Source of the DNA: an uncultured Faecalibacterium sp.
GTDB taxonomy: Bacteria; Bacillota; Clostridia; Oscillospirales; Ruminococcaceae
Assembly: GCA_902463235.1 (NCBI GenBank)
Contig: CABQER010000003.1
Coordinates: 9,297-73,296, forward strand
Direction: 5' to 3'
Length of the DNA stretch: 64,000 bases
Position numbers and translations under genes: made by a program. Positions 48,092 to 64,000 of the stretch are shown here, piece by piece. The notes below the pieces were generated by a model. The model did no database searches and had not been told where the DNA came from. It worked only from the letters and a program-made list of their open reading frames with translations. Position 1 is the first letter of the stretch, and each line of letters begins with the position of its first letter.

Positions 48092-49174
48092 CTAGGTGGC
48101 AGCTTTGGCGTGGCGCTGCCGCACCCGGCATTCCAGCGCCTTGTAAAAGCTGCTCAGGCAGAGCGTGAGCAAAAGTACGGTCAGGGTCCAGACCACGGGA
48201 TGTACCGTAAGGTTAAACTTGTCCGCGAACCACTCCATATACCGGATCAGCACCTGATGGATCAGAAAACCGTAAGGAGACAGCCCCGCCAGCCACAAAA
48301 ACGGCTTTGCGGAAAACAGCCGGGAAATGAACCCCTTGCCCACGGCAAGCAGCCAGACCAGCAGCACCGCAGAGGGGATAAACAGCACATTGTACCGGAA
48401 GGCCGCTGCACCCAGAACCCCCACCTGTCTGGCGGCGATAAACAGGCAGCCGCCCGCAAGCAGCACAGCGGCAAGTTCCAGCAGGGAGAAAACACCGCGC
48501 GGCAGGGTGCTTACCTGTTTGCGGCTGTGGTAAAGACAGCCCATGCAGCAGCTGATGGTAAAATTTCCCGCCCGGAAAAGCGGGCACAGATAGGTCAGGT
48601 AAAAGACTGTCGTTTCATTGAACCCGGCCTTCCAGAAAACAAAGGACGCAAGGCACTGTGCGCAGAAAATCACCGCGGCTATGCAGCGCAGCCTGCGGGC
48701 ATCTGCTTTTTTCAGCACGGCGAGTAGCGGGGGGAAGATGGCATACAGAAAAGCCTGTAACGAAAGATACCACGCCACCCCGTTCAGGCAGAACCAGAAA
48801 CGGTTGGAAGGAACCCATGTCTGCAGCAGGAAAATGCTTACCAAAAGCTGCGCTGCACAGGATAGCGCTCCACGGACAGAGGGCTGCGCCAGAAGCCCCT
48901 TCAGCACAAATAACAGCGCGGCAGTCATCATAATAAGGTGCAGCAGGTACAGCTTGCGTATTTTTTGCAGGGAAAAGGCGATGGCAGACCGCACCCCCGG
49001 TGCTGTGGGAGGACGGTCGTAATGGTTGCAGGTCATCAGGAACCCGGACAGCGCCACGAACACCGTGATCGCCCACGGGCTCAGCCACGGCAGCCCGCAA
49101 TGGGAGAGGACGATGCACAAAAATGCGACTGCCCGCAGTCCCTGTAAAGATGAGATCAGCTTTTTGTCTGTCAA
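48092..49174 (-). CDS. Acyltransferase family 3 (OafA-like) membrane protein
   Basis: SLQGLRAVAFLCIVLSH, FVALSGFLM, NGVAWYLS, GFLIHQ; TTG start after GGAGG. Confidence 0.85.
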   Translation of the reverse strand: MTDKKLISSLQGLRAVAFLCIVLSHCGLPWLSPWAITVFVALSGFLMTCNHYDRPPTAPGVRSAIAFSLQKIRKLYLLHLIMMTAALLFVLKGLLAQPSVRGALSCAAQLLVSIFLLQTWVPSNRFWFCLNGVAWYLSLQAFLYAIFPPLLAVLKKADARRLRCIAAVIFCAQCLASFVFWKAGFNETTVFYLTYLCPLFRAGNFTISCCMGCLYHSRKQVSTLPRGVFSLLELAAVLLAGGCLFIAARQVGVLGAAAFRYNVLFIPSAVLLVWLLAVGKGFISRLFSAKPFLWLAGLSPYGFLIHQVLIRYMEWFADKFNLTVHPVVWTLTVLLLTLCLSSFYKALECRVRQRHAKAAT

Positions 49175-49337
49175 AGTATCCTCCGTTCTGCCGCAAAGCG
49201 CGGCAGCTGTGTTTTTGCAATGCATTATAAGTATAAAAAAGGTGGCGCGTCCTGTCAAGAACACGCCGCTTTTTTGCGTGGCAGGGTGCGATTTTTGAGC
49301 GTCATAAATTCTTAACAAAGAAAAATTGCAAAACCCC

Positions 49338-49397
49338 TTGATTTTTCAGGGCAAGATGAGTACAATACACTTAGCACTCAGAGAAAAGGAGTGCTAA
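49338..49397 (+). promoter_or_regulatory. groE promoter and CIRCE (HrcA operator)
   Basis: TTGATT-17-TACAAT (49338-49366); perfect TTAGCACTC-N9-GAGTGCTAA at 49371-49397. Confidence 0.95.
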
Positions 49398-49478
49398 ACC
49401 ACTGCGGAGCATACACGAAGCCCCCGCAGGACGCAACAAAGTTTCAAATAAATTCAATATAATTGGAGGGCAAGAATT

Positions 49479-49766
49479 ATGAAGATCATTCCTCTTGCAG
49501 ACCGTGTTGTCATTAAGACTGTTGAAGTCGAGGAGACCACCAAGGGTGGCCTGATCCTGACCGGCAGCGCAAAAGAGAAGCCGCAGGTGGCACAGGTCAT
49601 CGCAGTTGGCCCCGGCGGTGTCGTGGACGGCAAGGAAGTCAAGATGACCGTCAAGGTCGGCGACAAGGTCCTCACCAGCAAGTACTCCGGCACCGAGGTC
49701 AAGGTGGACGGCGAAGAGTGCACCATCGTGCGCCAGAGCGACATTCTGGCTGTTGTGGAAGACTGA
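49479..49766 (+). CDS. groES: Co-chaperonin GroES
   Basis: PLADRVVI, TKGGLIL, AVGPG, KYSGTEV. Confidence 0.98.
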   Translation: MKIIPLADRVVIKTVEVEETTKGGLILTGSAKEKPQVAQVIAVGPGGVVDGKEVKMTVKVGDKVLTSKYSGTEVKVDGEECTIVRQSDILAVVED

Positions 49767-49790
49767 AACTGATTTTTCCTTTTCAATTGA

Positions 49791-51452
<1,662 letters not shown>

Positions 51453-51506
51453 TAGCTGCCAAAAAACCGCATGAATCCTTGATTTTTGGAGTGCGCAAGA
51501 GCGGAT

Positions 51507-51534
51507 TTACGCCAAACTTACGCCACTTACGCCA
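51507..51534 (+). repeat. Three TTACGCCA direct repeats (candidate integrase arm-type sites)
   Basis: Exact copies at 51507, 51518 and 51527, about 55 bp after the groEL stop. Confidence 0.7.
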
Positions 51535-51560
51535 AAAATCAAAGCGCACTATAGGGTAAC

Positions 51561-51598
51561 AAAATCGGCACTCGCTGAAAAGCGGGTGCCGATTTTTT
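51561..51598 (+). terminator. Intrinsic terminator downstream of groEL
   Basis: AAAATCGGCACTCGCT-GAAA-AGCGGGTGCCGATTTTTT. Confidence 0.8.
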
Positions 51599-51741
51599 GC
51601 GTCTAGGGGATTTGAAGACTCATGAAACACACTGATGGATTCTGCGAGCGGCAGACTGTCAGCGGCTTTATTGTTGACGAAAAACAAAGGTAGGGATACA
51701 ATAATAAAAAAGAATGTAAAACCGGAAGGGAGCGTGCCGCC

Positions 51742-51957
51742 ATGGAAAATCAGAGGGATTTCTGCACAGAATGCCGCAGAGAAACAAACTACACCTTGAA
51801 GAAAATCAAAAGCAACCAGACTATTCGGGGTAAAGAGTACACTTTTGAGATCGCGGCTGCTTTCTGCAACGAATGCGGCGGCGAAATGGGGATTCCCGGC
51901 CTGATAGACTACAACATAAAGGAGATAGACGAGCAGTACCATAGCATCAGAACGTGA
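51742..51957 (+). pseudogene. Truncated MqsA-like zinc-finger antitoxin N-terminus
   Basis: FCTECRRE...IRGKEYTF....AFCNECGGEM; stops after 71 aa, before any HTH; GGAAGGGAG RBS. Confidence 0.55.
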
Positions 51958-52015
51958 GATGGGTTAAAGAAGCGTACTGCAACAATGATATAAAAGTAGT
52001 TTCTTTTCGTGTGAG

Positions 52016-53716
52016 GTGAAATCAATGAATGCTGACTATGTTGAAAATATCATTCGAAATATTGATGAGAAGTTTTATACCTATAAGTGCATCTTGGTTG
52101 ATGGTACTTGGGGCATTGGAAAGTCCTATATGGTAAGAAAAGCATTAGAGGACAAGAAAGATAAGGCTTTTTATGTATCGCTGTTTGGGCTGGAAAGTGC
52201 TCAGCAAATATATCATGATATTTTATATCAACTGCTTCTTCATACAGAGAATGGTGGAAAATTAGTTGAGTGGTGTAAGGATATAACTAAGATTTTTGGA
52301 AATTTCAATGAAAAGATAAAAAATATAAATACTATTTTGGAAAGTCATTTTTCAGAACGGGATTTGCTGAAAACGATAATCCAAAAATTTGAAGGACATT
52401 GTATTATTGTGGTTGATGATTTAGAAAGGCATAAAAAAGGAGTGAACTTTGAGGAAGCTTTGGGAATAATTGAAAACCTGAAGCAATTTGAACAAGTTAA
52501 AATCATTCTTATTGCGCATTCTGGAGAAATTCGTAGTGAGGATAAAGATATTTATGACAAATTCAAAGAAAAGGTAATAGATAGAATATTTGAGGTGACG
52601 GAACATTCAAATTCTATCAAGTGGGATAGAATGGGAAAGCAGGAATTTATTGCGAATTTCTTGTCTCAGCATAATGTGAAAAATTTGCGAACATTACAAA
52701 AAGCAAGATGTTTTTTTAATGATGTGGAACGGTGCTGCTTGGAGATTAAGGACGAGAAATTTATCGATGAAATACGGCAGATATGTTTTGCGGTAGTAGT
52801 TGAAGATACGGATAAGCTTTATTATAGAGAGCTTCCTGAATTTTCAGAACAGGATGCCTCAAATCCTCAAAAGCGAGTGACGAGGATTTTGGCAGAAAGT
52901 GAAAATAAGATAGAATCAAGGCTGGGACAGTATACTAAAAAATTGAAGTCGGGAGAGGCATTGGTAAAATGTATTTACAAATATTATAAAAATGAAAAGA
53001 TATTGACGAAAGAGGAGATGGAAATACATTACAAAATATATCGAAAAGCGGGAGACATACCTAATAATTATAAGTCTGAAAAAGAAATGAGACAATATAT
53101 TAGCGTGTGGAAAACTGAATTTGATGAGGCAAAGGGGAGCACTGAATTAACTTTTTTGGCGGGAGAATATGATCGATGGTATCAGGTTTTAGGGGAGGAT
53201 GACAAAGAGCTGATAGAAACCTATGAAAAAAAGCTTGAGAAGTTCTTTGTTGACGAAGCAAAGAAAATAATGCCCAATCCTTTGGATCACTATAGTGGAG
53301 GTAAATTTGACAATGCCACACAAACGGTAAGAGAAATATATAATGAAGTGCTCAAAAGAGCAAAATGCAGATTGGTGCAGGATTATATAGAGTATCTTTG
53401 TGAAAAGACAAATGACGAGACAGCTTGGAAATATTCAGGACAGCTTAGGGACTGGTATACAGATAGCACGGATATAGGAAAGTATATTGAAGATAATCTG
53501 GAAAGGCTTTTTACTGAAAAATCGTTCCCTGTATTTGGTATGAATGATTGTAAATATTATACCTGCTGCAACATTATTAAGATGCTGTATCAGAAAGATA
53601 GTGAGCATTTTGTTGAACGGTATAAAGAGCTGAAAACAAGTTTTGACCGCATGAGCATTTACCGAACGGAGATGATTCTCAGAGAACTCGAAATCCTAAA
53701 TCAAATCAATAAATAA
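52016..53716 (+). CDS. KAP-family P-loop NTPase
   Basis: GTWGIGKS Walker A, YVSLFG, IIVVDDLER Walker B, FKEKVID, NLRTL; AT-rich. Start may be ATG 52025. Confidence 0.85.
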   Translation: MKSMNADYVENIIRNIDEKFYTYKCILVDGTWGIGKSYMVRKALEDKKDKAFYVSLFGLESAQQIYHDILYQLLLHTENGGKLVEWCKDITKIFGNFNEKIKNINTILESHFSERDLLKTIIQKFEGHCIIVVDDLERHKKGVNFEEALGIIENLKQFEQVKIILIAHSGEIRSEDKDIYDKFKEKVIDRIFEVTEHSNSIKWDRMGKQEFIANFLSQHNVKNLRTLQKARCFFNDVERCCLEIKDEKFIDEIRQICFAVVVEDTDKLYYRELPEFSEQDASNPQKRVTRILAESENKIESRLGQYTKKLKSGEALVKCIYKYYKNEKILTKEEMEIHYKIYRKAGDIPNNYKSEKEMRQYISVWKTEFDEAKGSTELTFLAGEYDRWYQVLGEDDKELIETYEKKLEKFFVDEAKKIMPNPLDHYSGGKFDNATQTVREIYNEVLKRAKCRLVQDYIEYLCEKTNDETAWKYSGQLRDWYTDSTDIGKYIEDNLERLFTEKSFPVFGMNDCKYYTCCNIIKMLYQKDSEHFVERYKELKTSFDRMSIYRTEMILRELEILNQINK

Positions 53717-53719
53717 GAC

Positions 53720-53765
53720 AAGCCGCCCAGCGACCTTACGGTCTCGCTGGGCGGCTTATTTTTTG
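53720..53765. terminator. Terminator between convergent KAP NTPase and XRE genes
   Basis: AAGCCGCCCAGCGA...TCGCTGGGCGGCTT followed by a T tract. Confidence 0.75.
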
Positions 53766-54058
53766 CGTTTCCACAACAGATATTCTTCGTAGCGGTGCAT
53801 CTCGTTCTGTTCTTCTTCGGTCAGGCGCTGGCGCTGTTTGCGGGCTTCGTCCGAGGGGTCGATGTCGGTCAGACCCAGTAGGTAGTCGGCAGAGGTGCCA
53901 TAACGCTTGCAGAGTGCAATCAAAACTTCATGGCTGGGAGATGCTTTGTCGCGTTCCCATGTGCGGACGGTAGGCACTGAAACATGAAATGCTTTTGCTA
54001 AATCTTCTTGCGTTTCACCGTTTAATTTGCGTAATTCCGCGAGCCGTTCGCCAATCAT
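53756..54058 (-). CDS. XRE/Cro-family HTH regulator
   Basis: IGERLAELRK...TQEDLAKAFHVSVPTVRTWERDKASP...SADYLLG. Confidence 0.92.
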   Translation of the reverse strand: MIGERLAELRKLNGETQEDLAKAFHVSVPTVRTWERDKASPSHEVLIALCKRYGTSADYLLGLTDIDPSDEARKQRQRLTEEEQNEMHRYEEYLLWKRKK

Positions 54059-54235
54059 CCTAATCCCTGCCTTTCTTTGCTATCAGTATAAATAATATTG
54101 TCGCTTTTGACAAAAACCGATAATCCCGTTGTCAGTTTTGCTTAAAAGTGATAATATTATTATCATAATAGTGCGAAAGTGATAAGAATACTGACACTTC
54201 CGCCACAACGCTAAGGCAAAGCGAGGGAATCCCCG

Positions 54236-56251
54236 TTGGAACAACTGATCGACTTTCACGCACCGGAAGTACAGGCGGTGCTGGATACGCTACTAAAAGA
54301 TAAATCCACCGGTAAAAACATCATCTGGGCAACCGACCCGCCGGAAGAACTGCAAACGGTAATGTACGAACCGGTGACGGATAAATCCCAGATCACTGCG
54401 CAGCAGCTCTGGCTGACCCACTACGAGGTGGTGCTGCCCCGGATGATGAAGCAGACCGACACCCAGCAGCAGCGCACCCGCAAAAAAGGCGAGGTGTTCA
54501 GCCCTGCATGGGTCTGCAACAAGATGAACAACGCACTGGACGCCGACTGGTTCCGTGCGCTGGGGGCAGAGGAGAGCGCCGGGCAGTTCACGGTGGAGCT
54601 GCCCCAAGGCTGGCAGACGGTGGAAACGCCGGTGCAGTTCCCAGCGTGCAAGGGCAGGACCACGGCATGGGTGCAGTATGTGCAGAGCCGCCGTTTGGAG
54701 GTGACCTGCGGCGAAGCCCCCTTTCTGGCATCCCGGTACGATGCCGCCACCGGCGAGATGATCCCGGTAGCCCGGCGCATTGGTATTCTGGACCGCAAGC
54801 TGCGTGTGGTAAGCGAGAACGCCGCCACAGAGGACGAGTGGCGCAAATATGCCACCCATGCAGTGCAGTCCACCTACGGCTATGAGTATCAGGGAGATAA
54901 TCTTTTGTTGGCGCGGGTCAACCTGCTGCTGACCTATGCAGAGCATCTGCAAGCCTGCTGGCAGCGCAAACCCACAAAAGAAGAGTTACAGCCTATCGCC
55001 ACCATCATCAGCTGGAACCTGTGGCAGATGGACGGCCTGCGCCTGTCCGTGCCCGGCGGCAAGCCCCAGCCGGAGGCAGAACAGCTTGACCTCTTTTCCA
55101 TGTTCGGGGCGGCAGAGCCGCAGCCGCCCACGGTATCCTGTAAAGTGAAAAACTGGCGCAAGGGCAGCCATGGAACCGCCCAGAACTTTGAAACCATTCA
55201 GGAAGGGAGTACCAGCATGAAGTTTGATTATGTCATCGGAAACCCGCCGTATCAGGATGAAACCCTTGGCGATAATGGAACGTTTGCACCGCCAGTATAT
55301 AACAAGTTTCTGGATGCGTCTTATGAGATAGCAGAAAAAGTAGAGATGATTCATCCGGCACGCTTTCTGTTCAATGCTGGTTCTACGCCGAAAGCATGGA
55401 ATGAAAAAATGCTGAATGACGACCATCTCAAAATTCTTTATTATGAAGCTGATAGTAGCAAAATGTTTGTGAACACAGACATTAAAGGCGGTATTGTGGT
55501 TTCGTATCGCAATATGTTAGAGCAATATGGTGCAATAGGAACATTTACACCCTATGAAGAATTAAATAGGATTCTTTGCAAAGTCAAGCCTGCAATAAAA
55601 GTACCATTGAGCACCATGATTTCAGGCAGAGGTGTATATAAACTATCCGCTGCGGCTTTGGAAGAACACTCGGAAATTGAAAGGATTCAATCAAAAGGCC
55701 ATAAATACGATGTGGGGTCGGGTGCTTTTAAAATTCTGAAAGACATTGTGTTTTTTGAAGAAAAGCCCGTAGATACTAACGAATATGTTGCATTTCTCGG
55801 ACTTGTAAATTTGAAAAGAGTGTATTATTGGACAAAGTTGAAGTATCAAAACCCACCCAAAAGCTTTGCGGAATATAAAGTGTTCATTCCTCAGGCAAGT
55901 GGAAGCGGAGCACTGGGCGAAGTAATGTCAAGCCCGCTTGTTGAAGCTCCCTTTGTTGGAGCAACTGAAACATTCCTTTCAATTGGTGGCTTTGAAACTC
56001 GAAGCGAAGCGGAAAACTGTCTGGCTTACATAAAGACTAAATTCGTGCGAGCAATGCTTGGAGTGTTGAAGATTACGCAAGCAAATACCCGAGAAAAATG
56101 GAAATACGTTCCCCTTCAGGACTTTACCGCCCATTCCGACATTGATTGGAGCAAGTCGGTGGCGGAAATTGACCAGCAGCTTTACCGCAAGTATGACCTG
56201 ACTGCGGACGAAATCGAATTTATCGAGACCCATGTAAAGGAGATGGCATAA
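54236..56251 (+). CDS. Amino-methyltransferase (Eco57I-like, NPPY) with C-terminal specificity region
   Basis: KKGEVFSP, RLEVTCGEAPFL (motif I-like), YGYEYQGDNL, FDYVIGNPPY (motif IV), MIHPARF, WKYVPLQDF; TTG start after GAGGG. Confidence 0.88.
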   Translation: MEQLIDFHAPEVQAVLDTLLKDKSTGKNIIWATDPPEELQTVMYEPVTDKSQITAQQLWLTHYEVVLPRMMKQTDTQQQRTRKKGEVFSPAWVCNKMNNALDADWFRALGAEESAGQFTVELPQGWQTVETPVQFPACKGRTTAWVQYVQSRRLEVTCGEAPFLASRYDAATGEMIPVARRIGILDRKLRVVSENAATEDEWRKYATHAVQSTYGYEYQGDNLLLARVNLLLTYAEHLQACWQRKPTKEELQPIATIISWNLWQMDGLRLSVPGGKPQPEAEQLDLFSMFGAAEPQPPTVSCKVKNWRKGSHGTAQNFETIQEGSTSMKFDYVIGNPPYQDETLGDNGTFAPPVYNKFLDASYEIAEKVEMIHPARFLFNAGSTPKAWNEKMLNDDHLKILYYEADSSKMFVNTDIKGGIVVSYRNMLEQYGAIGTFTPYEELNRILCKVKPAIKVPLSTMISGRGVYKLSAAALEEHSEIERIQSKGHKYDVGSGAFKILKDIVFFEEKPVDTNEYVAFLGLVNLKRVYYWTKLKYQNPPKSFAEYKVFIPQASGSGALGEVMSSPLVEAPFVGATETFLSIGGFETRSEAENCLAYIKTKFVRAMLGVLKITQANTREKWKYVPLQDFTAHSDIDWSKSVAEIDQQLYRKYDLTADEIEFIETHVKEMA

Positions 56252-59200
56252 TGGCTGGCATAACCCTGCGCACTGCCCGGCAGGTAGTGCCCATGATCTA
56301 CGCCTATACCACCCCGGAAATTGCCCGGCACAACGGCTGGACGAAGATCGGCTACACCGAGCAGTCGGTGGACAAACGTCTGAAACAGCAGACTCACACC
56401 GCCGATGTGCTGTTCCACGAGGAGTGGCGGGGCAATGCCGTCTACGATGACGGCAGCGGCGAGGTGTTCACCGACCACGATTTCCACGCCTACCTCCGTA
56501 AGCTGAACGTGGAGAATGACCGCAAAAACGAGTGGTTCCATCTGGATGGGCAGCAGTCCCGGCGGTATTTTCAGGATTTCCGCATGAACCGGGGCCGGGT
56601 GCAGCTGGATGCCGCCATCGCCTACACCCTGAGGGAGGAACAGGCAAGGGCTGTCCGCGACACTAAAACCTATTACTGGAGCCACCCCGGCGGAGAATAT
56701 CTCTGGAATGCCAAGCCCCGCTTTGGCAAGACTCTCTCCGTCTACGATTTCTGCAAGCAGGTCGATGCACAGACGGTGCTTATCGTCACCAACCGCCCTG
56801 CCATTGCCAATAGCTGGTACAGCGATTATGTGCGCTTTCTGGGCAGAGAGTCCGGCTATCTCTTCGTCAGTCATGTGGATGCCCTTGCCGGGCTGCCCCA
56901 TGTGCTGGACGAGCAGGGCTATCTGGACGCCGCCGCACAGGGCGAGGAGCTGTATAAGCGCATTGAGTTCGTCAGCCTGCAGGATATGAAAGGCTCGAAA
57001 TATTTCGGCGGCGAGTACGACAAGCTGCGCCACCTGACCGAGCTGAACTGGGATGTGCTGGTCATCGACGAAGCCCACGAGGGCGTGGACACCTACAAGA
57101 CCGACCTTGCCTTTGACCGCATCCACCGCCGCTTCACGCTGCACCTGTCCGGCACGCCCTTCAAAGCGCTGGCGAACGATAAGTTTGCCGGGAATGCCAT
57201 CTTCAACTGGACCTACGCCGACGAGCAGGCAGCCAAGCGGAGCTGGCAGGGCGCACCGGGGCAGCAGAACCCCTACGCAAACCTCCCCATGCTCAACCTC
57301 TACACCTACCAGATGTCCGAGATCATCCGGGACGAAATTCAGCAGGGCGTGGAGATCGACGGCGAAACGCAGGAATTTGCCTTTGACCTGAACGAGTTTT
57401 TCAAGGTAAAGCCCAGCGGCAGCTTTGAACACGACGCCGAGGTAGACCGCTTTCTGGATGCCATGACCACCCAGAACAAGTTTCCGTTTTCCACCCCGGA
57501 GCTGCGGGCCGAACTGAAGCACACCTTCTGGCTGCTGAACAGGGTGGACAGCGCCAGAGCGCTGGCAAAAAAGCTGCAGGCGCACCCGGTGTTCCGGGAC
57601 TATGAGGTGATCCTTGCCGCCGGTGACGGCAAGCTGGACGACACGGACGAGAACCAGAAGAGCTTTGACCGGGTAAAAGCCGCCATCGCCCACCACGAAA
57701 AGACCATCACCCTGTCGGTGGGGCAGCTCACCACCGGTGTCACCATCCCGGAATGGTCGGCGGTGCTGATGCTCTCCAACCTGAAAAGCCCGGCGCTGTA
57801 TATGCAGGCGGCGTTCCGTGCCCAGAACCCCTGCCTTTTCCACGAAAACGGCACCTTCCGCCGCAAAGAGAACGCCTATGTGTTCGATTTTGACCCTGCC
57901 CGCACTCTGCTGATCTATGAGCAGTTCGCCAACGACCTTTCTCAGAACACCGCCAGCGGCAAGGGCGACACCGAGGAGCGCAAGGCGCACATCCAGACCC
58001 TGCTCAATTTCTTCCCGGTCATCGGCGAGGACGAGGAAGGGGAGATGATCCCGCTGGATGCAGAAAAAGTCCTCAGCATCCCCCGGAAGATCAAGTCCAA
58101 AGAAGTGGTGCGGATGGGCTTCCAGAGCAATTTCCTGTTCCAGAACATTTCCAACGTGTTCAGTGCGCCGCAGGAGGTGCTGGACATTCTGCAAAACTTC
58201 CAGCCCATCAGCGAAGCCAAGGCAAAGCCCATTCAGATCACCCCGGACACCGGCGCAGACCTTTCCCTGAACGACAAGGGCGAGGTGGATCTGGACGAGG
58301 GCTACGTCATCGGCAAGGCAGCGGATGTGTTCGGGGAAAAAATTTATGAGAGCATCCCGGCGCTGGACACCGCCTTGCAAGACCTGACCGATGCCCCGGC
58401 GAAAGAGGAGCATCTGGAGCCCCTGAAAAAGAGCATCACCAAGGAGATCATCACCCCCATGGTGGAGCAGGCAAAGCAGGAGTATGGGCGGGACCTGAAG
58501 CTGTCCGACCAGAAGCGGTTCGAGAGCGCCGCCAAAGCCAAGATGGACGTGGCGGTGAACAAGGTGGTGGACAACTACCGCATCGACCAGAGCCAGTTGG
58601 AGACCCAGCGCACCCAGCAGCTGCAAAGCTGCACCACCGCCCAGCAGCGCCAGCAGGTGAACCGGGAGTTTGACGCAAAGCAGCAGCAGAGCACCGCCGC
58701 CCTCATGGAGACGTTGCAAACCACCATCCAGCAGACGGCGCAGGAAATGCAGCAGACCATCGTGCGCACCGTGGAGACCAACCAGAAGGAGCAGGAGAAA
58801 AAGGGCTACGAGGACACCGTCCGTGACCACCTCCGGGGCTTTTCCCGCACCATCCCGTCCTTCCTCATGGCCTACGGCGACGAGACCGTGACGCTGGCAA
58901 ATTTTGACCAGATCATCCCGGACAAGGTCTTTCAGGAGGTCACCAGCATCACGCTGGAACAGTTCCGCTTTTTGCGGGACGGCGGGCCGTACATCAACCA
59001 AGCCACCGGACAGGAGGAGCACTTTGCAGGCCATCTGTTCGACCCGGTGGTGTTTGACGATTCGGTGAAGGAGTTCTTGAACCTGAAGGTCAAGCTGGCG
59101 GATTACTTCGACGAGAGCCGCACCGAGGATATCTTCGACTACATCCCACCTCAGAAAACCAACCAGATCTTCACTCCCAAGTGGGTGGTGAAAAAGATGG

Positions 59201-59553
59201 TGGACTTGCTGGAGCAGGAAAACCCCGGCTGCTTCGATGACCCCGGCAAGACCTTTCTCGACCCCTACATGAAGTCCGGTCTGTATATTACCGAGATCGT
59301 CAAGCGGCTCTACCGCAGCGAGAAAATGCGGCAAACCTTCCCGGATGATAACGCCCGGCTGGAACATATCTTTGCCAAGCAGGTCTATGGGCTTGCGCCG
59401 ACCGAGATCATCTACCGCATTGCTATCAGCTACATTCTGGGCTTTGCAAAGGGTCACGGCATCACCGCCCACCATATCCGTCAGGCGGATACGCTGGAAT
59501 TTGCCAAGGCGGGCACCATGGAAAGGGAACTGGATAAGATTTTCAGAGACTGA
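56251..59553 (+). CDS. GIY-YIG-like nuclease + SF2 (DEAH) helicase + C-terminal partial methyltransferase
   Basis: IYAY...KIGYT...RLKQQ...NEWF; AKPRFGKT, IDEAH, SGTP, QAAFRAQNP; Gln-rich coiled coil; QIFTP...FLDPYMKSGLY...VYG with no NPPY; TAATG coupling to the MTase gene. Confidence 0.88.
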   Translation: MAGITLRTARQVVPMIYAYTTPEIARHNGWTKIGYTEQSVDKRLKQQTHTADVLFHEEWRGNAVYDDGSGEVFTDHDFHAYLRKLNVENDRKNEWFHLDGQQSRRYFQDFRMNRGRVQLDAAIAYTLREEQARAVRDTKTYYWSHPGGEYLWNAKPRFGKTLSVYDFCKQVDAQTVLIVTNRPAIANSWYSDYVRFLGRESGYLFVSHVDALAGLPHVLDEQGYLDAAAQGEELYKRIEFVSLQDMKGSKYFGGEYDKLRHLTELNWDVLVIDEAHEGVDTYKTDLAFDRIHRRFTLHLSGTPFKALANDKFAGNAIFNWTYADEQAAKRSWQGAPGQQNPYANLPMLNLYTYQMSEIIRDEIQQGVEIDGETQEFAFDLNEFFKVKPSGSFEHDAEVDRFLDAMTTQNKFPFSTPELRAELKHTFWLLNRVDSARALAKKLQAHPVFRDYEVILAAGDGKLDDTDENQKSFDRVKAAIAHHEKTITLSVGQLTTGVTIPEWSAVLMLSNLKSPALYMQAAFRAQNPCLFHENGTFRRKENAYVFDFDPARTLLIYEQFANDLSQNTASGKGDTEERKAHIQTLLNFFPVIGEDEEGEMIPLDAEKVLSIPRKIKSKEVVRMGFQSNFLFQNISNVFSAPQEVLDILQNFQPISEAKAKPIQITPDTGADLSLNDKGEVDLDEGYVIGKAADVFGEKIYESIPALDTALQDLTDAPAKEEHLEPLKKSITKEIITPMVEQAKQEYGRDLKLSDQKRFESAAKAKMDVAVNKVVDNYRIDQSQLETQRTQQLQSCTTAQQRQQVNREFDAKQQQSTAALMETLQTTIQQTAQEMQQTIVRTVETNQKEQEKKGYEDTVRDHLRGFSRTIPSFLMAYGDETVTLANFDQIIPDKVFQEVTSITLEQFRFLRDGGPYINQATGQEEHFAGHLFDPVVFDDSVKEFLNLKVKLADYFDESRTEDIFDYIPPQKTNQIFTPKWVVKKMVDLLEQENPGCFDDPGKTFLDPYMKSGLYITEIVKRLYRSEKMRQTFPDDNARLEHIFAKQVYGLAPTEIIYRIAISYILGFAKGHGITAHHIRQADTLEFAKAGTMERELDKIFRD

Positions 59554-59576
59554 GAAATAGAATACGGCATAAAACC

Positions 59577-59616
59577 AAAGGCGGCTGTCTGCATGGGTGC
59601 AGATGGCCGCCTTTTT
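59577..59616. terminator. Terminator between convergent helicase and DUF262 genes
   Basis: AAAGGCGGCTGTCTGCA-TGGG-TGCAGATGGCCGCCTTTTT. Confidence 0.75.
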
Positions 59617-59628
59617 GTGCTATGCCTG

Positions 59629-61485
59629 TTACAAAAATGAAAGCTGTTGAACGTCCGGCAAATCGTTTTCAGGTGTGGAATGATTGGCTTTTTTCATCAT
59701 GTTTCCAATGGTTTTTTTGATGGTGGACTTGGTTTCGATCCCTTGCTTGCGCATCTTTGTATCATTGGTGTTTTTTTGAACCGAGCAGATACTGGATTTC
59801 AAGATACGATTGTAGAAGTCCATTGCCATGATATTCGTCCGCTCATTTATATCAATCGTGGACTTTCCAGCATATCGCTGAGCGATATTCCGTGCGGTAT
59901 GAAACATTGATGTTTCATAAATTTTAAGTTTGCTGGCGAAATCTTTTCCATTGCACCGTGAATTTAGGCTGTCTTCAAGAGGAATCAAATTCCCAATAAT
60001 GCCATTTTCAGGGGAATTTGTATCATCCAAGATATGTTCGATCGTGAAGGCAGCACACTGCTTACTGGCACATTTGTATCGTTCAAGGACTTCCAAAACA
60101 ACTTGCACACGTTCCTTGTTTCGGTCATCGTCGTAATACCCAGCGTGATGTGACCACCCTAAATTGGAGAATGCTTTGAGAAAGACTTCTTTGCTGGGAA
60201 GTTTATTCTTTAACTCTGAGATAAAGCATTCCAATGCGGAGTCGGAGTAGTGGTTTTCGAGAATACTGGAATTTTTGTAAATCGCATTTGTTATTTTGTT
60301 CGAATTTTCTTGTCCAATAATGGTATAGCAGATGAAAAAATCATAGAGAAACAGAAGGGTCTCCTCGTACTTCTCTTGGCTGAGGTGACCGAGTTCATAT
60401 TGATGAATTAGACTTAAAAGGATAGGACGAATTTGTTCTTGCCGATGCTTTTTGAAAAAAGCATATACTTTAAATTCAACATTCGAACAGTTAGCAGATT
60501 CCTCAGATTGAGAAGGAGAAAGAAGGCGGTTGTAGTAGATGGACTTCTGATAAATATCGTCAAGAAGCGGAACAGTTGGAATGCCTTTGTTGGAATCACG
60601 AATGAGTTTATAATCGCTGATACCTTCCTGAACAGAGGTTCTATATTTGTGGGTTGCATAATGTTTTACAAAGCGTTCGATGTTGTTACCTAAAAGCGAT
60701 TCGATCTCCGACCAAGTGGTTTTCGCAGTGTCGACATCTCCATCGGGTCTAATGCCTCTTAGAATAAAGTTCTTTAATAGTTCATGCCCTTCCAATGCTG
60801 AGCCGCGAGCGTTTAAAATCTCAAAAATCGTGTACGCATCTTCCTCGGAAGATGCGGTAATATCAACGTATAGCAGATTGTCCGTGATGGCGGTTCGTAA
60901 ATTGAGTAGGACCTGAATTGGAGAAAGAGCAGATTCTTCAATATGTTTATAAATGCTGTTTATGAAAAACACAAAGGCAGCTGCGAGATTCTTGTTGTTT
61001 CGAGAATACTGCTTTACAAGTGCTACGGTTTCAAAACACTTTGCCATATTTGGAGAAATTGAAAAGAGCCCGGTAATAATTCGCTCCAGTGCAATATATT
61101 GCTCAGACTTGATGACCATAGTTTCCTGATTTAAATCATCACGAGTGAACAAATACTGCTTTGTTCCTCGAAATTCGTCGTCAAATTCATAGCAATGAAG
61201 GCAAAAGGCTACACTTGCAAGAAAAATTGTTAGGGAAATAATCCGTTGTTGACCATCTACAATTGTAAAATAGGAGATGCCGTTTTTGCGGTCGTTCTCT
61301 TTGTAAAGAACGATACTTCCGATGAAGTGGGTTGCTTCTTTTCCGGTAGCAACGAGCAAGACATCATCAAATAACTCTTGCCAGTTTCTTTTGTTCCATA
61401 CATACTGTCGCTGGTTTCGGGGTGTTCCATAACAACGCTTGGTGAAAAGGTCGTAGACGTGTTTGTCATCTGCTTCAAAACTCAA
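59629..61485 (-). CDS. DUF262 + DUF1524(HNH) GmrSD-like protein
   Basis: PRNQRQYVW, HFIGSIV, IVDGQQR, FEILNARG, TIEHIL...IGNLIPL...N; AT-rich; TTG start after GAGG. Confidence 0.87.
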   Translation of the reverse strand: MSFEADDKHVYDLFTKRCYGTPRNQRQYVWNKRNWQELFDDVLLVATGKEATHFIGSIVLYKENDRKNGISYFTIVDGQQRIISLTIFLASVAFCLHCYEFDDEFRGTKQYLFTRDDLNQETMVIKSEQYIALERIITGLFSISPNMAKCFETVALVKQYSRNNKNLAAAFVFFINSIYKHIEESALSPIQVLLNLRTAITDNLLYVDITASSEEDAYTIFEILNARGSALEGHELLKNFILRGIRPDGDVDTAKTTWSEIESLLGNNIERFVKHYATHKYRTSVQEGISDYKLIRDSNKGIPTVPLLDDIYQKSIYYNRLLSPSQSEESANCSNVEFKVYAFFKKHRQEQIRPILLSLIHQYELGHLSQEKYEETLLFLYDFFICYTIIGQENSNKITNAIYKNSSILENHYSDSALECFISELKNKLPSKEVFLKAFSNLGWSHHAGYYDDDRNKERVQVVLEVLERYKCASKQCAAFTIEHILDDTNSPENGIIGNLIPLEDSLNSRCNGKDFASKLKIYETSMFHTARNIAQRYAGKSTIDINERTNIMAMDFYNRILKSSICSVQKNTNDTKMRKQGIETKSTIKKTIGNMMKKANHSTPENDLPDVQQLSFL

Positions 61486-62030
61486 TGAAAGTCACCTCTT
61501 TTTCAGTGGATGGATTTGACCATTTGCTAATTAAGTTCATTTTAACCCATGAGAGCCAGAAAATCAACATTAACGCTATGATTTGGAAGTTGCGGTTTAC
61601 CGATGAAAAAACGGAATGGACTGAAAAGCTAATAATATAGAAAAACCAATACTGACTTCTACATAATCGCAAGCGACAGTTATGCGACAGTATGCTAGTG
61701 CAGGCTTCATCTAACGGATGCGGTTTACGGGTTTAGGTGTTCCCAATAAACATTCCGCAAAACGAAATGCCGTTTATATGCTGACGAATTGTTGGCTTAC
61801 GCTACGGAGACTCCTAGGGGACTTTCCAAATTTCAAAGCCATTTTGTAAACCAGACCGTCAGCTTTCAACTTTGACTTGAAACTGGCGGTTATTTCATAA
61901 CCTAGATGATTTTCGAGTTCACAACACCATATCAAACAGGATAGGCTACCTTGTTCTCTATCTTTTTGCCAAAGTTTTCAGCGTGTTTTCTTGCACACTG
62001 CCGAAAGTGGCGTGTTTTCAAAACTTTTTG

Positions 62031-62059
62031 TTGACATGGCTCGATTTTTGTGGTAATCT
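62031..62059 (+). promoter_or_regulatory. sigma70-type promoter with extended -10, pointing into the hairpin array
   Basis: TTGACA (62031)-17 nt-TAATCT (62054), with TG at 62051-62052. Confidence 0.65.
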
Positions 62060-62356
62060 ATCCCAACAATTTAATATAACATATTTACTTAGAGTTCCAG
62101 CTCGGCTCCCGAAGGAGTCGGAGCAAGTTTTTGACTTTCTTATCGCTACATAACGAATCCGAACCAAGGCCATCCCAGAAGGGACGGTCAGGTTCAGGTT
62201 GTTGTGTGGCGATTTTTTATTGCAAAATCAGCAACGAACCTTGAAAACCGCATGACCGTCTGCATGGAATACACGGCGATGACCCCGCAAGGGAGAGCCG
62301 GAAAACGCCGCCGGAAGGGGGCAGGAAAGCCATGCAGGGAGAACGGCGCACCCAAT

Positions 62357-63757
62357 ATCAACTTGTCAAAATGGCCAGTTGATGTGGTGAATGACACAAA
62401 GCGTCATTCACCAGAAAAACCTTATGCGTTACGGCTCACCTCATGTGGACAATTTGTCTACATGAGGTAACCTGTCGCAGCCTAATTCAATGTGTTCAAA
62501 CTGAGCACATTGACTCTGTCCGTGTTACAGCTGACCTCGACTTGACATTTTGTCAAGCCACGGTGAAATTCGGTAAGTGCTGCTTTTCAGTACTTACCAA
62601 ATGACCGTAACACGGTCGCTCTGTGGTGGGTTACGAAAACCGTAACTCACCACTTGGAAGTGGTAAATGGACAAAATGTCCACTTACCACTCAACCATAA
62701 CAGAGGAAGCTTGGTTGGTGGTCATTTTGATCACCAACCAGACAATCGTAACGCTTTACTGTGTAAAAGTGGCTGTTACCATTTTGATAACCGCCACGCA
62801 TCTGTAACGTTTGGGCAAATAATGCTTTTCATTATCCACCACACACCCGTAACAACCAAAGGAGGATTCCTATGACAACAGAACAATGGGAACGCGAAAA
62901 TCAGGACACCTTGATGGAATATTTCATTGATGGCGACCCCAGTGTGCGCAGAATCCAATGTGAATACTGCCGCAAGGTCATCTACACCCAGACCCGAAAC
63001 CGCAAATATTGCAGCTTCCAGACCTGCGGTCACAAGATGCTGAATCTGCGGAAAAGCCTTAAAAAGCGTGCCGACCGTGGAACTTACACCTGCGTCTGCT
63101 GCGGGGAACAGTTCCTACCAATTCGGGCAGATGCCAGATATTGCAACAATGCCTGCCGGCAGAAAGGCTACCGCCAGCGTAAAATAGCTGCACACACTTC
63201 TCTTTGAGGAACTTGATAAAGTTTGTCGAGTTCCTTATCTACGCTCGCTTTTATCCAGTAAAGTGGCACTTCCCAGAATGGGAAGTGCCAAAATACCGTA
63301 ACTCTTAATCGCTCACTCCCAAATCCCCAAAGTGGGAATTTGGGCTGTCATCTGAAATCAGGTTACGCTTTCCGTAACTTGATTTGTAACTCCTGCCGAA
63401 TCAAGTTCCCACTTTGGGAACTTGATTGTAGCCGTATCAAAATCAGGTTGTCAAAATGATAACTTGATTTCATCTGCAACGAAGCCACCGGAGTTATCAT
63501 TTTGAGAACTTCGGCTTTATCTGTTACGCGTCGCGCCCACTCCGTAAAAATCAGGTGGTCAAAATGATCACTTGATTCTACCCGTAACGACTCAAGGTCG
63601 TTGAAAATTAGGTGCCGCACCCGGCACTTGATTTTACCCGTAACAGAATCAGTGGGTCAAAATGGCCCGCTGAAAAAGCCGGACGAGCTGCGGGCAGGGA
63701 TTCGCAAATCTTTGCCTGTCAGCTTGCCAAAATCAACGGGCCAAAATGGCCCGTTGA
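62357..63757 (+). repeat. Array of about 23 heterogeneous hairpins/palindromes with 5-nt A/T-rich loops and interspersed GTAAC motifs
   Basis: Mostly 10-14 bp stems, e.g. AATCAAGTTCCC-ACTTT-GGGAACTTGATT (63399), TGGCACTTCCC-AGAAT-GGGAAGTGCCA (63264), TCAACGGGCC-AAAAT-GGCCCGTTGA (63733); 11 before and 12 after the 62872 ORF. Confidence 0.85.
62872..63207 (+). CDS. Small double zinc-finger protein embedded in the hairpin array
   Basis: GGAGG RBS; CEYC...KYCSFQTC and CVCC...RYCNNACRQKGYRQRK; basic. Confidence 0.8.
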   Translation: MTTEQWERENQDTLMEYFIDGDPSVRRIQCEYCRKVIYTQTRNRKYCSFQTCGHKMLNLRKSLKKRADRGTYTCVCCGEQFLPIRADARYCNNACRQKGYRQRKIAAHTSL

Positions 63758-63907
63758 AGGGAGTCAAGGGGGAACGCCTTACCCAGTGATATGATGCTGT
63801 GCGTCATATCCTACTGGGTATTATCTGGCGCACCGCAGGCGGCAGATTCAGCAGCAAAGCTGCTGCGCACCCACCCCGCCAAGCTGTTGAAATGGAGGAA
63901 TGTCTAT

Positions 63908-64000
63908 CTGAAATTAACACGACACAACGGACGAGCCGGGACCCACGGCACCTATAACCCCAAGCACAATGACCGGAGTTTCAACCTTGTCAACAGTGAG
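63908..64000 (+). CDS. Probable mobilization protein/relaxase (Pre/MobV-like), 5' part only
   Basis: After GGAGG (63894) the frame reads (C)TG-KLTRHNGRAGTHGTYNPKHNDRSFNLVNSE; HNDR recalls the MobV H-N-x-R motif; only 31 codons visible. Confidence 0.55.
   Translation, partial: MKLTRHNGRAGTHGTYNPKHNDRSFNLVNSE

Follow-up and report, generated by a model that had tools for sequence, protein, structure and literature searches.

A Faecalibacterium locus with two half-methylases and one beta module, related to the DrdVI split-methylase kind

How can a restriction subunit recognize its site when its own methylase ends halfway? The question is raised by two adjacent genes in a 64,000-nucleotide stretch of DNA from an uncultured Faecalibacterium sp. 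(GenBank assembly GCA_902463235.1, contig CABQER010000003.1, positions 9,297 to 73,296 of the forward strand; hereafter the window). Gene 1 carries a half-methylase that would bind S-adenosylmethionine (SAM), followed by a catalytic NPPY motif plus a domain for target recognition (TRD); gene 2 is a nuclease-ATPase that closes with a second half-methylase and stops. Judged by homology, the locus is an intact, rearranged layout variant of a kind of system that already has a name, the DrdVI "split methylase," and for which the literature searched offered no mechanism. We divide it into 4 modules, namely aM and beta in gene 1, and R (nuclease, ATPase, and helical region) and aR (the end of gene 2), which are placed as follows.

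54236..56251, + strand: gene 1, 671 amino acids (aa), TTG start; fusion of aM (modification-side SAM half) and beta (NPPY-TRD)
54236..55216, + strand: aM, gene 1 aa 1-327; N-terminal half of a gamma-class amino-methyltransferase, homologue of M1.DrdVI
55200..55219, + strand: internal start at which a free beta of 344 aa is predicted to begin; Shine-Dalgarno (SD)-like site, 55200-55209; ATG in frame, 55217-55219
55217..56251, + strand: beta, gene 1 aa 328-671; catalytic half (GNPPY) and target-recognition region, swappable, with a low-GC (guanine plus cytosine) centre
56251..59553, + strand: gene 2, 1100 aa; GIY-YIG/T5orf172 nuclease, superfamily 2 (SF2) ATPase, helical coupler/coiled region, and degenerate half-methylase aR
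56296..56556, + strand: GIY-YIG-like nuclease domain; Pfam T5orf172 and MUG113 above cut-off
56611..58050, + strand: ATPase core of SF2 helicase type (Pfam ResIII), roughly aa 121-600, with Walker A AKPRFGKT and DEAH
59098..59553, + strand: aR, second half-methylase; motif I D-x-x-x-K-S-G, motif II without the acid; predicted docking site of beta

The 4 modules and the end point of gene 2

A re-check of open reading frames (ORFs) and motifs found both genes and their named motifs where the original prediction had placed them. In gene 1 these are GEVFSP (54488), LEVTCGEAPFL (54695), YGYEYQGDN (54875), and MKFDYVIGNPPY (55217), with LEVTCGEAPFL as motif I, YGYE as motif II, and GEVFSP and QMDG as further motifs of aM; in gene 2 they are KIGYT (56344), AKPRFGKT (56710), DEAH (57067), QIFTP (59164), FLDPYMKSGLY (59254), and VYGLAP (59383). 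The genes meet in TAATG with a one-base overlap, and gene 2 indeed lacks an NPPY, none being present downstream of aR within it. In Pfam, gene 1 matches Eco57I (aa 316-411) and gene 2 matches T5orf172, MUG113, and ResIII. The PADLOC MTase_II profiles PDLC03390 and PDLC03375 fell on gene 1 aa 13-310 and 546-670, and a PADLOC IIG profile of 1359 positions extends over some of the helicase as well as gene 1's second half. The NCBIfam search of the genes gave nothing useful, neither gene matched a PDB sequence at E 1, and in the PDB profile search the beta profile stayed unmatched and the gene 2 profile drew helicase-type and weak matches only. Two alignments of homologues show nuclease residues Y17, K32-IGYT, R43, D75, and E94-W as invariant or nearly so, and nuclease and ATPase motifs are kept in 60 homologues with identities down to 36%. 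The source assembly, which is 61% complete, holds one copy of each gene; the nearest named loci are from Faecalibacterium (97-98%).

All 4 modules have homologues on pDrdVI of Deinococcus wulumuqiensis 479, a plasmid found among the hits; judging by gene order and content, we equate its 212-, 539-, and 851-aa genes with M1, M2, and R. Gene 1 aa 149-277 align with the 212-aa protein (30%, E 5e-9), placing aM with M1; gene 1 aa 327-670 align with M2 aa 200-534 (25%, E 2e-29), placing beta in the second part of M2; gene 2 aa 950-1058 align with M2 aa 7-119 (30%, E 8e-14), placing aR at its start; and gene 2 aa 14-672 align with the DrdVI helicase-nuclease (31% over 755 columns, E 8e-79). The kinship of aR to gene 1 is based on this BLAST comparison to DrdVI and on multiple alignment; their profiles, compared directly, matched weakly (probability 18.7).

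An AlphaFold model of gene 2 (mean predicted local distance difference test score 83.8, predicted template modeling score 0.73) comprises the nuclease, the SF2 core, and long helices and closes, as half of a Rossmann sheet should, with 3 short strands at 1002-1004, 1045-1049, and 1075-1078. The top Foldseek match was the Type ISP enzyme LlaBIII (4xqk; E 3e-14, 13% identity, template modeling score 0.25). A second aligner ranked RadD first for the ATPase core (Z 22.9, root-mean-square deviation (rmsd) 3.2, 331 aligned) and LlaBIII 50th (model 122-1100 on chain 49-1010, rmsd 17), and we make no claim that the aligned end at 1010 marks the junction. Structural matches to the ATPase core span gene 2 aa 121-600.

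Is gene 2 then simply broken? The original prediction required that its stop not be a truncation, and this was borne out: all 80 loci kept from a GTDB scan, which were the best 80 of 573 confirmed and are therefore biased toward close relatives, stop after aR, with none continuing into beta, and 24 aligned homologues terminate within 2 residues of one common column. Truncation is accordingly rejected. Gene 2 aa 600-1100 were matched by 7314 of 7997 scored candidates. Outside Faecalibacterium, median identities were 71% for aR (68 loci), 70% for the helicase (67 loci), and 46% for aM (57 loci); aR is thus conserved at the level of the helicase and is not decaying. Fused forms of gene 2 are common among more distant relatives. 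The 95 representatives of at least 780 aa, drawn from the best 150 of 3080 hits in a 50% library, comprised GIY-helicase-aR (43), GIY-helicase-aR-beta (32), helicase-aR-beta (8), GIY-helicase (6), helicase-aR (3), and GIY-helicase-aR-aM-beta (3) forms. Continuation into an NPPY-TRD, which had been named as an observation that would make the present copy a truncation, occurs in part of the distant relatives (32/95 as GIY-helicase-aR-beta, against 43/95 that stop after aR). A separate aM gene accompanies all 16 complete R-aR-beta loci and 7 further such loci, so that the methylase is still split there.

We surveyed 180 loci, of which 41 were incomplete, mostly at contig ends and in a few cases through deletion alleles or halves too divergent for the profiles. 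The 139 complete loci fall into 4 layouts: three genes (69), aM-beta with R-aR as in the window (50), aM with R-aR-beta (16), and aM with aR-beta and R (4). Each contains both half-methylases and at least 1 beta; for aM this follows from the definition of the count, and aM is also present in most loci free of contig edges. Beta was found fused to either half-methylase. A FastTree phylogeny of the helicase domain (92 rows, reduced from 138 for redundancy) requires at least 22 layout changes; the aM-beta state needs 16 changes on it, 9 of them forced by starred branches. Gene order varies too on annotated plasmids. A fifth layout, the single chain R-aR-aM-beta, occurs in one bacterial family; proteins of this form (L183, L184, L185, L189, and L209; P0158, P0161, and P0169) are about 1450-1590 aa long, contain both half-methylases, and have an eroded junction start.

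Frameshifts or assembly errors as the source of split gene 1 relatives were rejected, because unrelated genes or insertion elements separate aM from beta in several loci. No further beta genes were recognized in these gaps, whose ORFs, inspected by eye, resemble toxin-antitoxin, helix-turn-helix (HTH), and other cargo; in 6 loci (L038, L047, L053, L054, L061, and L062) toxin-antitoxin-like gene pairs (nucleotidyltransferase-HEPN, PIN; also by eye) lie between aM and beta.

Other loci vary further. At L105:8351-10660, 2 extra beta cassettes with near-identical SD-ATG junctions follow an R-aR-beta gene, possibly as a specificity repertoire or through recombination shuffling. Deletion alleles at L017, L046, L050, and L088 have lost much of beta or carry an in-frame fusion of aM to the helicase and are likely inactivated copies. 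Many 991-aa forms of gene 2 (P0029-P0062; L143), about 98% identical and covering just 82% of the C-terminal query, suggest a common allele with an internal deletion.

A probably shared beta and a degenerate aR

Beta behaves as a swapped specificity cassette. Compared with the locus in the window, 14 close alleles are 97-98% identical in the helicase, 96-99% in aR, and 90-97% in aM, but 29-97% in beta; identity at the DNA level is lost just past NPPY and restored near the end of beta, the centre of which has a GC fraction of 0.40 against 0.59-0.60 in aM and gene 2.

In gene 1 this cassette is fused to aM, and yet the fusion retains what resembles a start of its own. The in-frame ATG at 55217 coincides with the start position of free beta genes, and the duplex predicted between 55200-55209 and the anti-SD sequence has an energy of -7.9 kcal/mol. 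All 42 distinct aM-beta junctions combine an ATG with an SD site (median -7.9 kcal/mol), close to the 67 starts of free beta genes (median -8.3, with 66 passing), whereas 458 internal ATGs elsewhere that served as a control differ (median -2.4, 13.5% passing). At aR-beta junctions a first count gave a start codon in 17/17 and an SD in 11/17. A motif-based recount over more loci gave 39/39 for aM-beta and, for aR-beta with DrdVI M2 included, a start codon in 30/30 and an SD in 23/30; 6 of the 7 junctions lacking the SD are from AT-rich loci, in which most ordinary starts lack it as well. The extra beta cassettes of L105 each have their own SD-ATG. The signal is also kept in deep groups in which every member is fused, such as 6 aM-beta rows with end branches of 0.18-0.37. 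Among one-chain R-aR-aM-beta genes none of 5 has the junction ATG: 3 lack a start codon, 1 has a TTG without an SD, and 1 has a TTG with an SD of -6.4 at -13. Selection for a free beta wherever one half has no beta in cis would agree with such a pattern.

The two halves between which such a beta would be shared differ at residues that usually contact SAM. We aligned 298 distinct segments (149 aM and 149 aR), with classes set first by position in the gene and then extended using profiles built from them. The first Gly of motif I is present in 149/149 aM segments and in 0/149 aR segments, which have Lys (146) or Thr (3) instead; the motif II acid (Glu or Asp) is present in 148/149 aM and in 0/149 aR segments (Ala 141, Ser 6, Gly 2). 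One divergent clade repeats the aR pattern of Lys and a missing acid. Both residues are known SAM contacts and, because both are absent from every aR segment, aR likely binds no SAM. The "SAM-binding half" first ascribed to gene 2 therefore stands as a description of fold rather than of demonstrated function. In a tree of the segments aM and aR lie on opposite sides of a branch with a support of 100, M1.DrdVI with aM and the start of M2 with aR, although the tool warned of long branches meeting at that dividing branch.

We somewhat favour a reading in which a free beta completes aR for restriction by recognition only, while aM-beta methylates. Beta joined to aM in gene 1 would methylate one adenine of an asymmetric site, and a free beta, likely translated from 55217, would complete the degenerate aR of gene 2. 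R-aR with beta would then be a nuclease-motor that reads the same site and is probably unable to methylate it; binding to an unmethylated site could trigger ATP-driven translocation and cleavage when 2 motors meet, by analogy with Type ISP enzymes as treated in the available part of PMC7049714. Since one beta would read DNA for both activities, a swap of beta would change restriction and modification together. The borrowing of an NPPY-TRD in trans by the restriction subunit, as originally proposed, is in our view the best reading of the locus: beta is a separate gene in 69/139 complete loci, and its start signal is kept in every aM-beta fusion tested.

Several observations weigh against this scheme. 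The start signal could be in part a leftover of recent fusions, because fused and split forms interleave on the helicase tree. With a linker of about 70 aa between QMDG and NPPY in gene 1, beta could reach aR with no internal start. The one-chain genes have a single beta beside aM and no clear free copy, so that aR there either shares beta in cis or needs none; the 5 of them come from one bacterial family and amount to about one event, so that a formal p-value on their lost ATG overstates. Further, aR retains the motif I Asp and second Gly (149/149 each) and the motif III Asp (140/149), and aM is no textbook enzyme either, its second motif I Gly being Ala in 130/149. Because the surveyed loci were chosen for resembling gene 2 or fused relatives, and because near-duplicates and broken alleles are among them, their counts are not independent. 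Finally, the accessible parts of the DrdVI and MaeIV literature yielded no statement on restriction by these systems or on an inactive lone M2.

Three other explanations were weighed against the sharing of beta. The strongest of them, which we nonetheless consider unlikely, makes aR an adaptor that docks a whole aM-beta in the manner of Type III Mod and Res; beta would never pair with aR, and the internal start would be a leftover or a means of adjusting subunit amounts. Such an adaptor would agree with the one-chain genes, which put a complete methylase directly after aR and have lost the internal ATG, with the loss of the typical SAM contacts from aR, and with frequent flips of the fusion state, owing to which the junction signals are possibly young. 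It gives no reason, however, for the start signal kept in deep all-fused groups, and R-aR-beta and DrdVI M2 genes join beta to aR through a short, helix-sized linker.

It is more doubtful still that aR-beta methylates by means of an atypical SAM pocket, in which case R-aR with beta would be a bifunctional, ISP-like enzyme and aM-beta a back-up for faster protection of the host. The residues that aR retains in motifs I and III, its strong conservation, and the fact that motif I varies among gamma-class enzymes speak for a functional pocket, and in PADLOC the fused form is represented by a profile for a Type IIG restriction-methyltransferase. The exchange of the first Gly for Lys or Thr and the absence of the motif II acid from every copy, the divergent clade included, speak against it, as do the presence of aM in all complete loci (with the caveat on definition given above) and most contig-edge-free loci and the assignment of DrdVI and MaeIV methylation to an M1-M2 pair.

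That the locus methylates without restricting, its motor-nuclease being idle or serving another role, as was concluded for DnmA-YeeB-YeeC, is highly improbable: the latter system has similar parts and gave no phage protection in B. subtilis (PMC9973331, in the part available), which also counts against the sharing scheme, and no DrdVI or MaeIV restriction assay was found in the accessible literature on them, but the conserved nuclease and ATPase motifs, the diversity of beta alleles beside a motor 97-98% identical, the patchy presence of the locus in the genus, among defence-type cargo and also on plasmids, and the protection by Vibrio homologues cited in the accessible text of PMC9973331 argue otherwise.

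Genomic setting, distribution, and significance

The 2 genes sit in a variable region downstream of groEL, where a KAP NTPase gene and a GmrSD/DUF262 gene differ between relatives. Upstream, 2 features may bear on expression.

53756..54058, - strand: Xre/HTH_3 gene, divergent from gene 1; candidate controller (Pfam HTH_3, E 6e-13)
54091..54161, no strand: imperfect inverted repeat of 33 nt overlapping divergent promoter-like sites; candidate operator

The DNA of the HTH_3 gene is common to 16 of 17 close loci, the remaining locus being cut short. The 33-nt repeat, 79% complementary, is the longest inverted repeat in 49000-64000, and promoter-like matches lie at 54085-54113 (- strand) and 54129-54158 (+ strand); the divergent gene and the repeat may regulate the operon. 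The system is flanked by the KAP-family NTPase gene (52016-53716, + strand, GC 0.34, PADLOC PDC-S49 match) and the GmrSD/DUF262-DUF1524 gene (59629-61485, - strand, GC 0.40, HEC-06 match), each found in some close loci only. A short zinc-ribbon ORF after groEL (51742-51957) resembles, by eye, the start of an MqsA-type antitoxin and gave weak Pfam zinc-finger matches only. A family of palindromes, each some 30-45 nt long and with the core AATCA...CAAAATG...TTGATT, recurs at 62350-63760 with spacings of 42-108 nt; these could be sites at which proteins bind in an origin or a mobile element.

Of 60 further genomes of the genus, 23 contain a match of some kind, fragments and other layouts included, and 74 of 262 genomes of one family carry the system. 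From a pattern scan of GTDB we estimate about 820 stretches, and the loci come from at least 7 phyla, one archaeon included. The family also occurs on plasmids of lactic acid bacteria and enterococci: on one Enterococcus plasmid (L008, NZ_CP097062.1) an aM and R-aR-beta system adjoins optrA, and many other Enterococcus plasmids carry a near-identical match to gene 2.

If the proposed mechanism is true, it would show by what means an ISP-like motor leaves the DNA that it is to cut unmethylated, offer a one-gene route to reprogramming restriction and modification, and draw attention to a system, mislabelled by annotation tools, that is likely to hinder transformation of Faecalibacterium and other anaerobes of the gut. 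The half-domain arrangement, if real, would mean that databases conceal a very widespread ATP-driven restriction system under the label Type IIG, and would account for the way in which DrdVI and MaeIV behave as "split methylases."

Comparison with known systems

The accessible text of PMC4996451 describes DrdVI as of a "split methylase" kind, with a GIY-YIG-related fused translocase and restriction endonuclease accompanied by M1 and M2. M1-2.DrdVI, labelled "IIG" and cloned in E. coli, produces N6-methyladenine (m6A) at GCAGCC (PMC6430315), and M1-M2 of MaeIV from Methanococcus aeolicus does so at GCACY (PMC10113651, as far as available); both motifs are asymmetric, and both activities were recorded in E. 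coli. We compared the locus with the DrdVI sequence, and with MaeIV by its description. DrdVI has all 4 modules in common with it, M1 corresponding to aM and M2 to aR-beta, and M2 shows the degenerate motifs of aR and an SD-ATG before NPPY; this correspondence would make sense of the association of M1 with an M2 that looks complete. The two differ in layout (aM, aR-beta, and R in the three-gene DrdVI; aM-beta and R-aR here), identity is only 25-31%, and aM has a long form here (327 versus 212 aa). In print, where REBASE and subscription papers lay outside our search, this family receives a few sentences, among which we found no mechanism, and no study devoted to it turned up. Candidate descriptions elsewhere were set aside: the "split DNA methyltransferases" of PMC4335053 concern a Campylobacter IIG gene, PMC3936762, cited there, does not have this layout in its available part, and PMC5608340 and PMC12707154, to the extent accessible, treat other subjects than DrdVI-type systems.

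DnmA-YeeB-YeeC of B. subtilis combines an m6A methylase, an SF2 helicase, and a T5orf172/GIY-YIG protein, but its methylase is whole and MmeI-like and its helicase and nuclease are separate genes; a second half-methylase is not described for it in the available part of the report (PMC9973331).

As the original prediction held, the locus fits none of the classical Types I, IIG, III, and ISP, failing the defining tests of all 4. A classical Type IIG enzyme is one chain without an ATPase, whereas an SF2 ATPase is present here and the methylase is split; databases nevertheless label relatives as IIG. Type III systems pair a beta-class Mod, with NPPY or DPPY before motif I, with a Res that has a C-terminal nuclease, whereas here motif I precedes NPPY and the nuclease is N-terminal. 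Type I systems have a two-TRD HsdS, a whole HsdM, and HsdR; HsdS and HsdR families found no match in Pfam, NCBIfam, or PADLOC, and N6_Mtase matched only below cut-off. The likeness to Type I lies in a specificity subunit that is separate and can be swapped, that is predicted to serve both the modifying and the restricting complexes, and that is sometimes present in several copies (L105). The shared subunit here differs in that it carries one specificity region joined to the NPPY catalytic half.

Type ISP enzymes such as LlaBIII and LlaGI have a single whole methylase domain and an Mrr-like nuclease in one polypeptide; here there are 2 genes, 2 half-methylases, and a GIY-YIG-like nuclease, and gene 2 has neither NPPY nor TRD. 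By sequence, LlaBIII gave no match at E 1. The ISP order of nuclease, SF2 ATPase, coupler, methylase, and TRD (PMC7049714, in its available part) is followed as far as the methylase by the gene 2 model, in a loose fit (rmsd 17-30). Placed between Type I and Type ISP, the locus may represent a distinct subtype defined by a division of labour between half-domains, in which an always-free beta would complete either an active SAM half or a SAM-blind pseudo-half, and we rate this proposal at about even chances.

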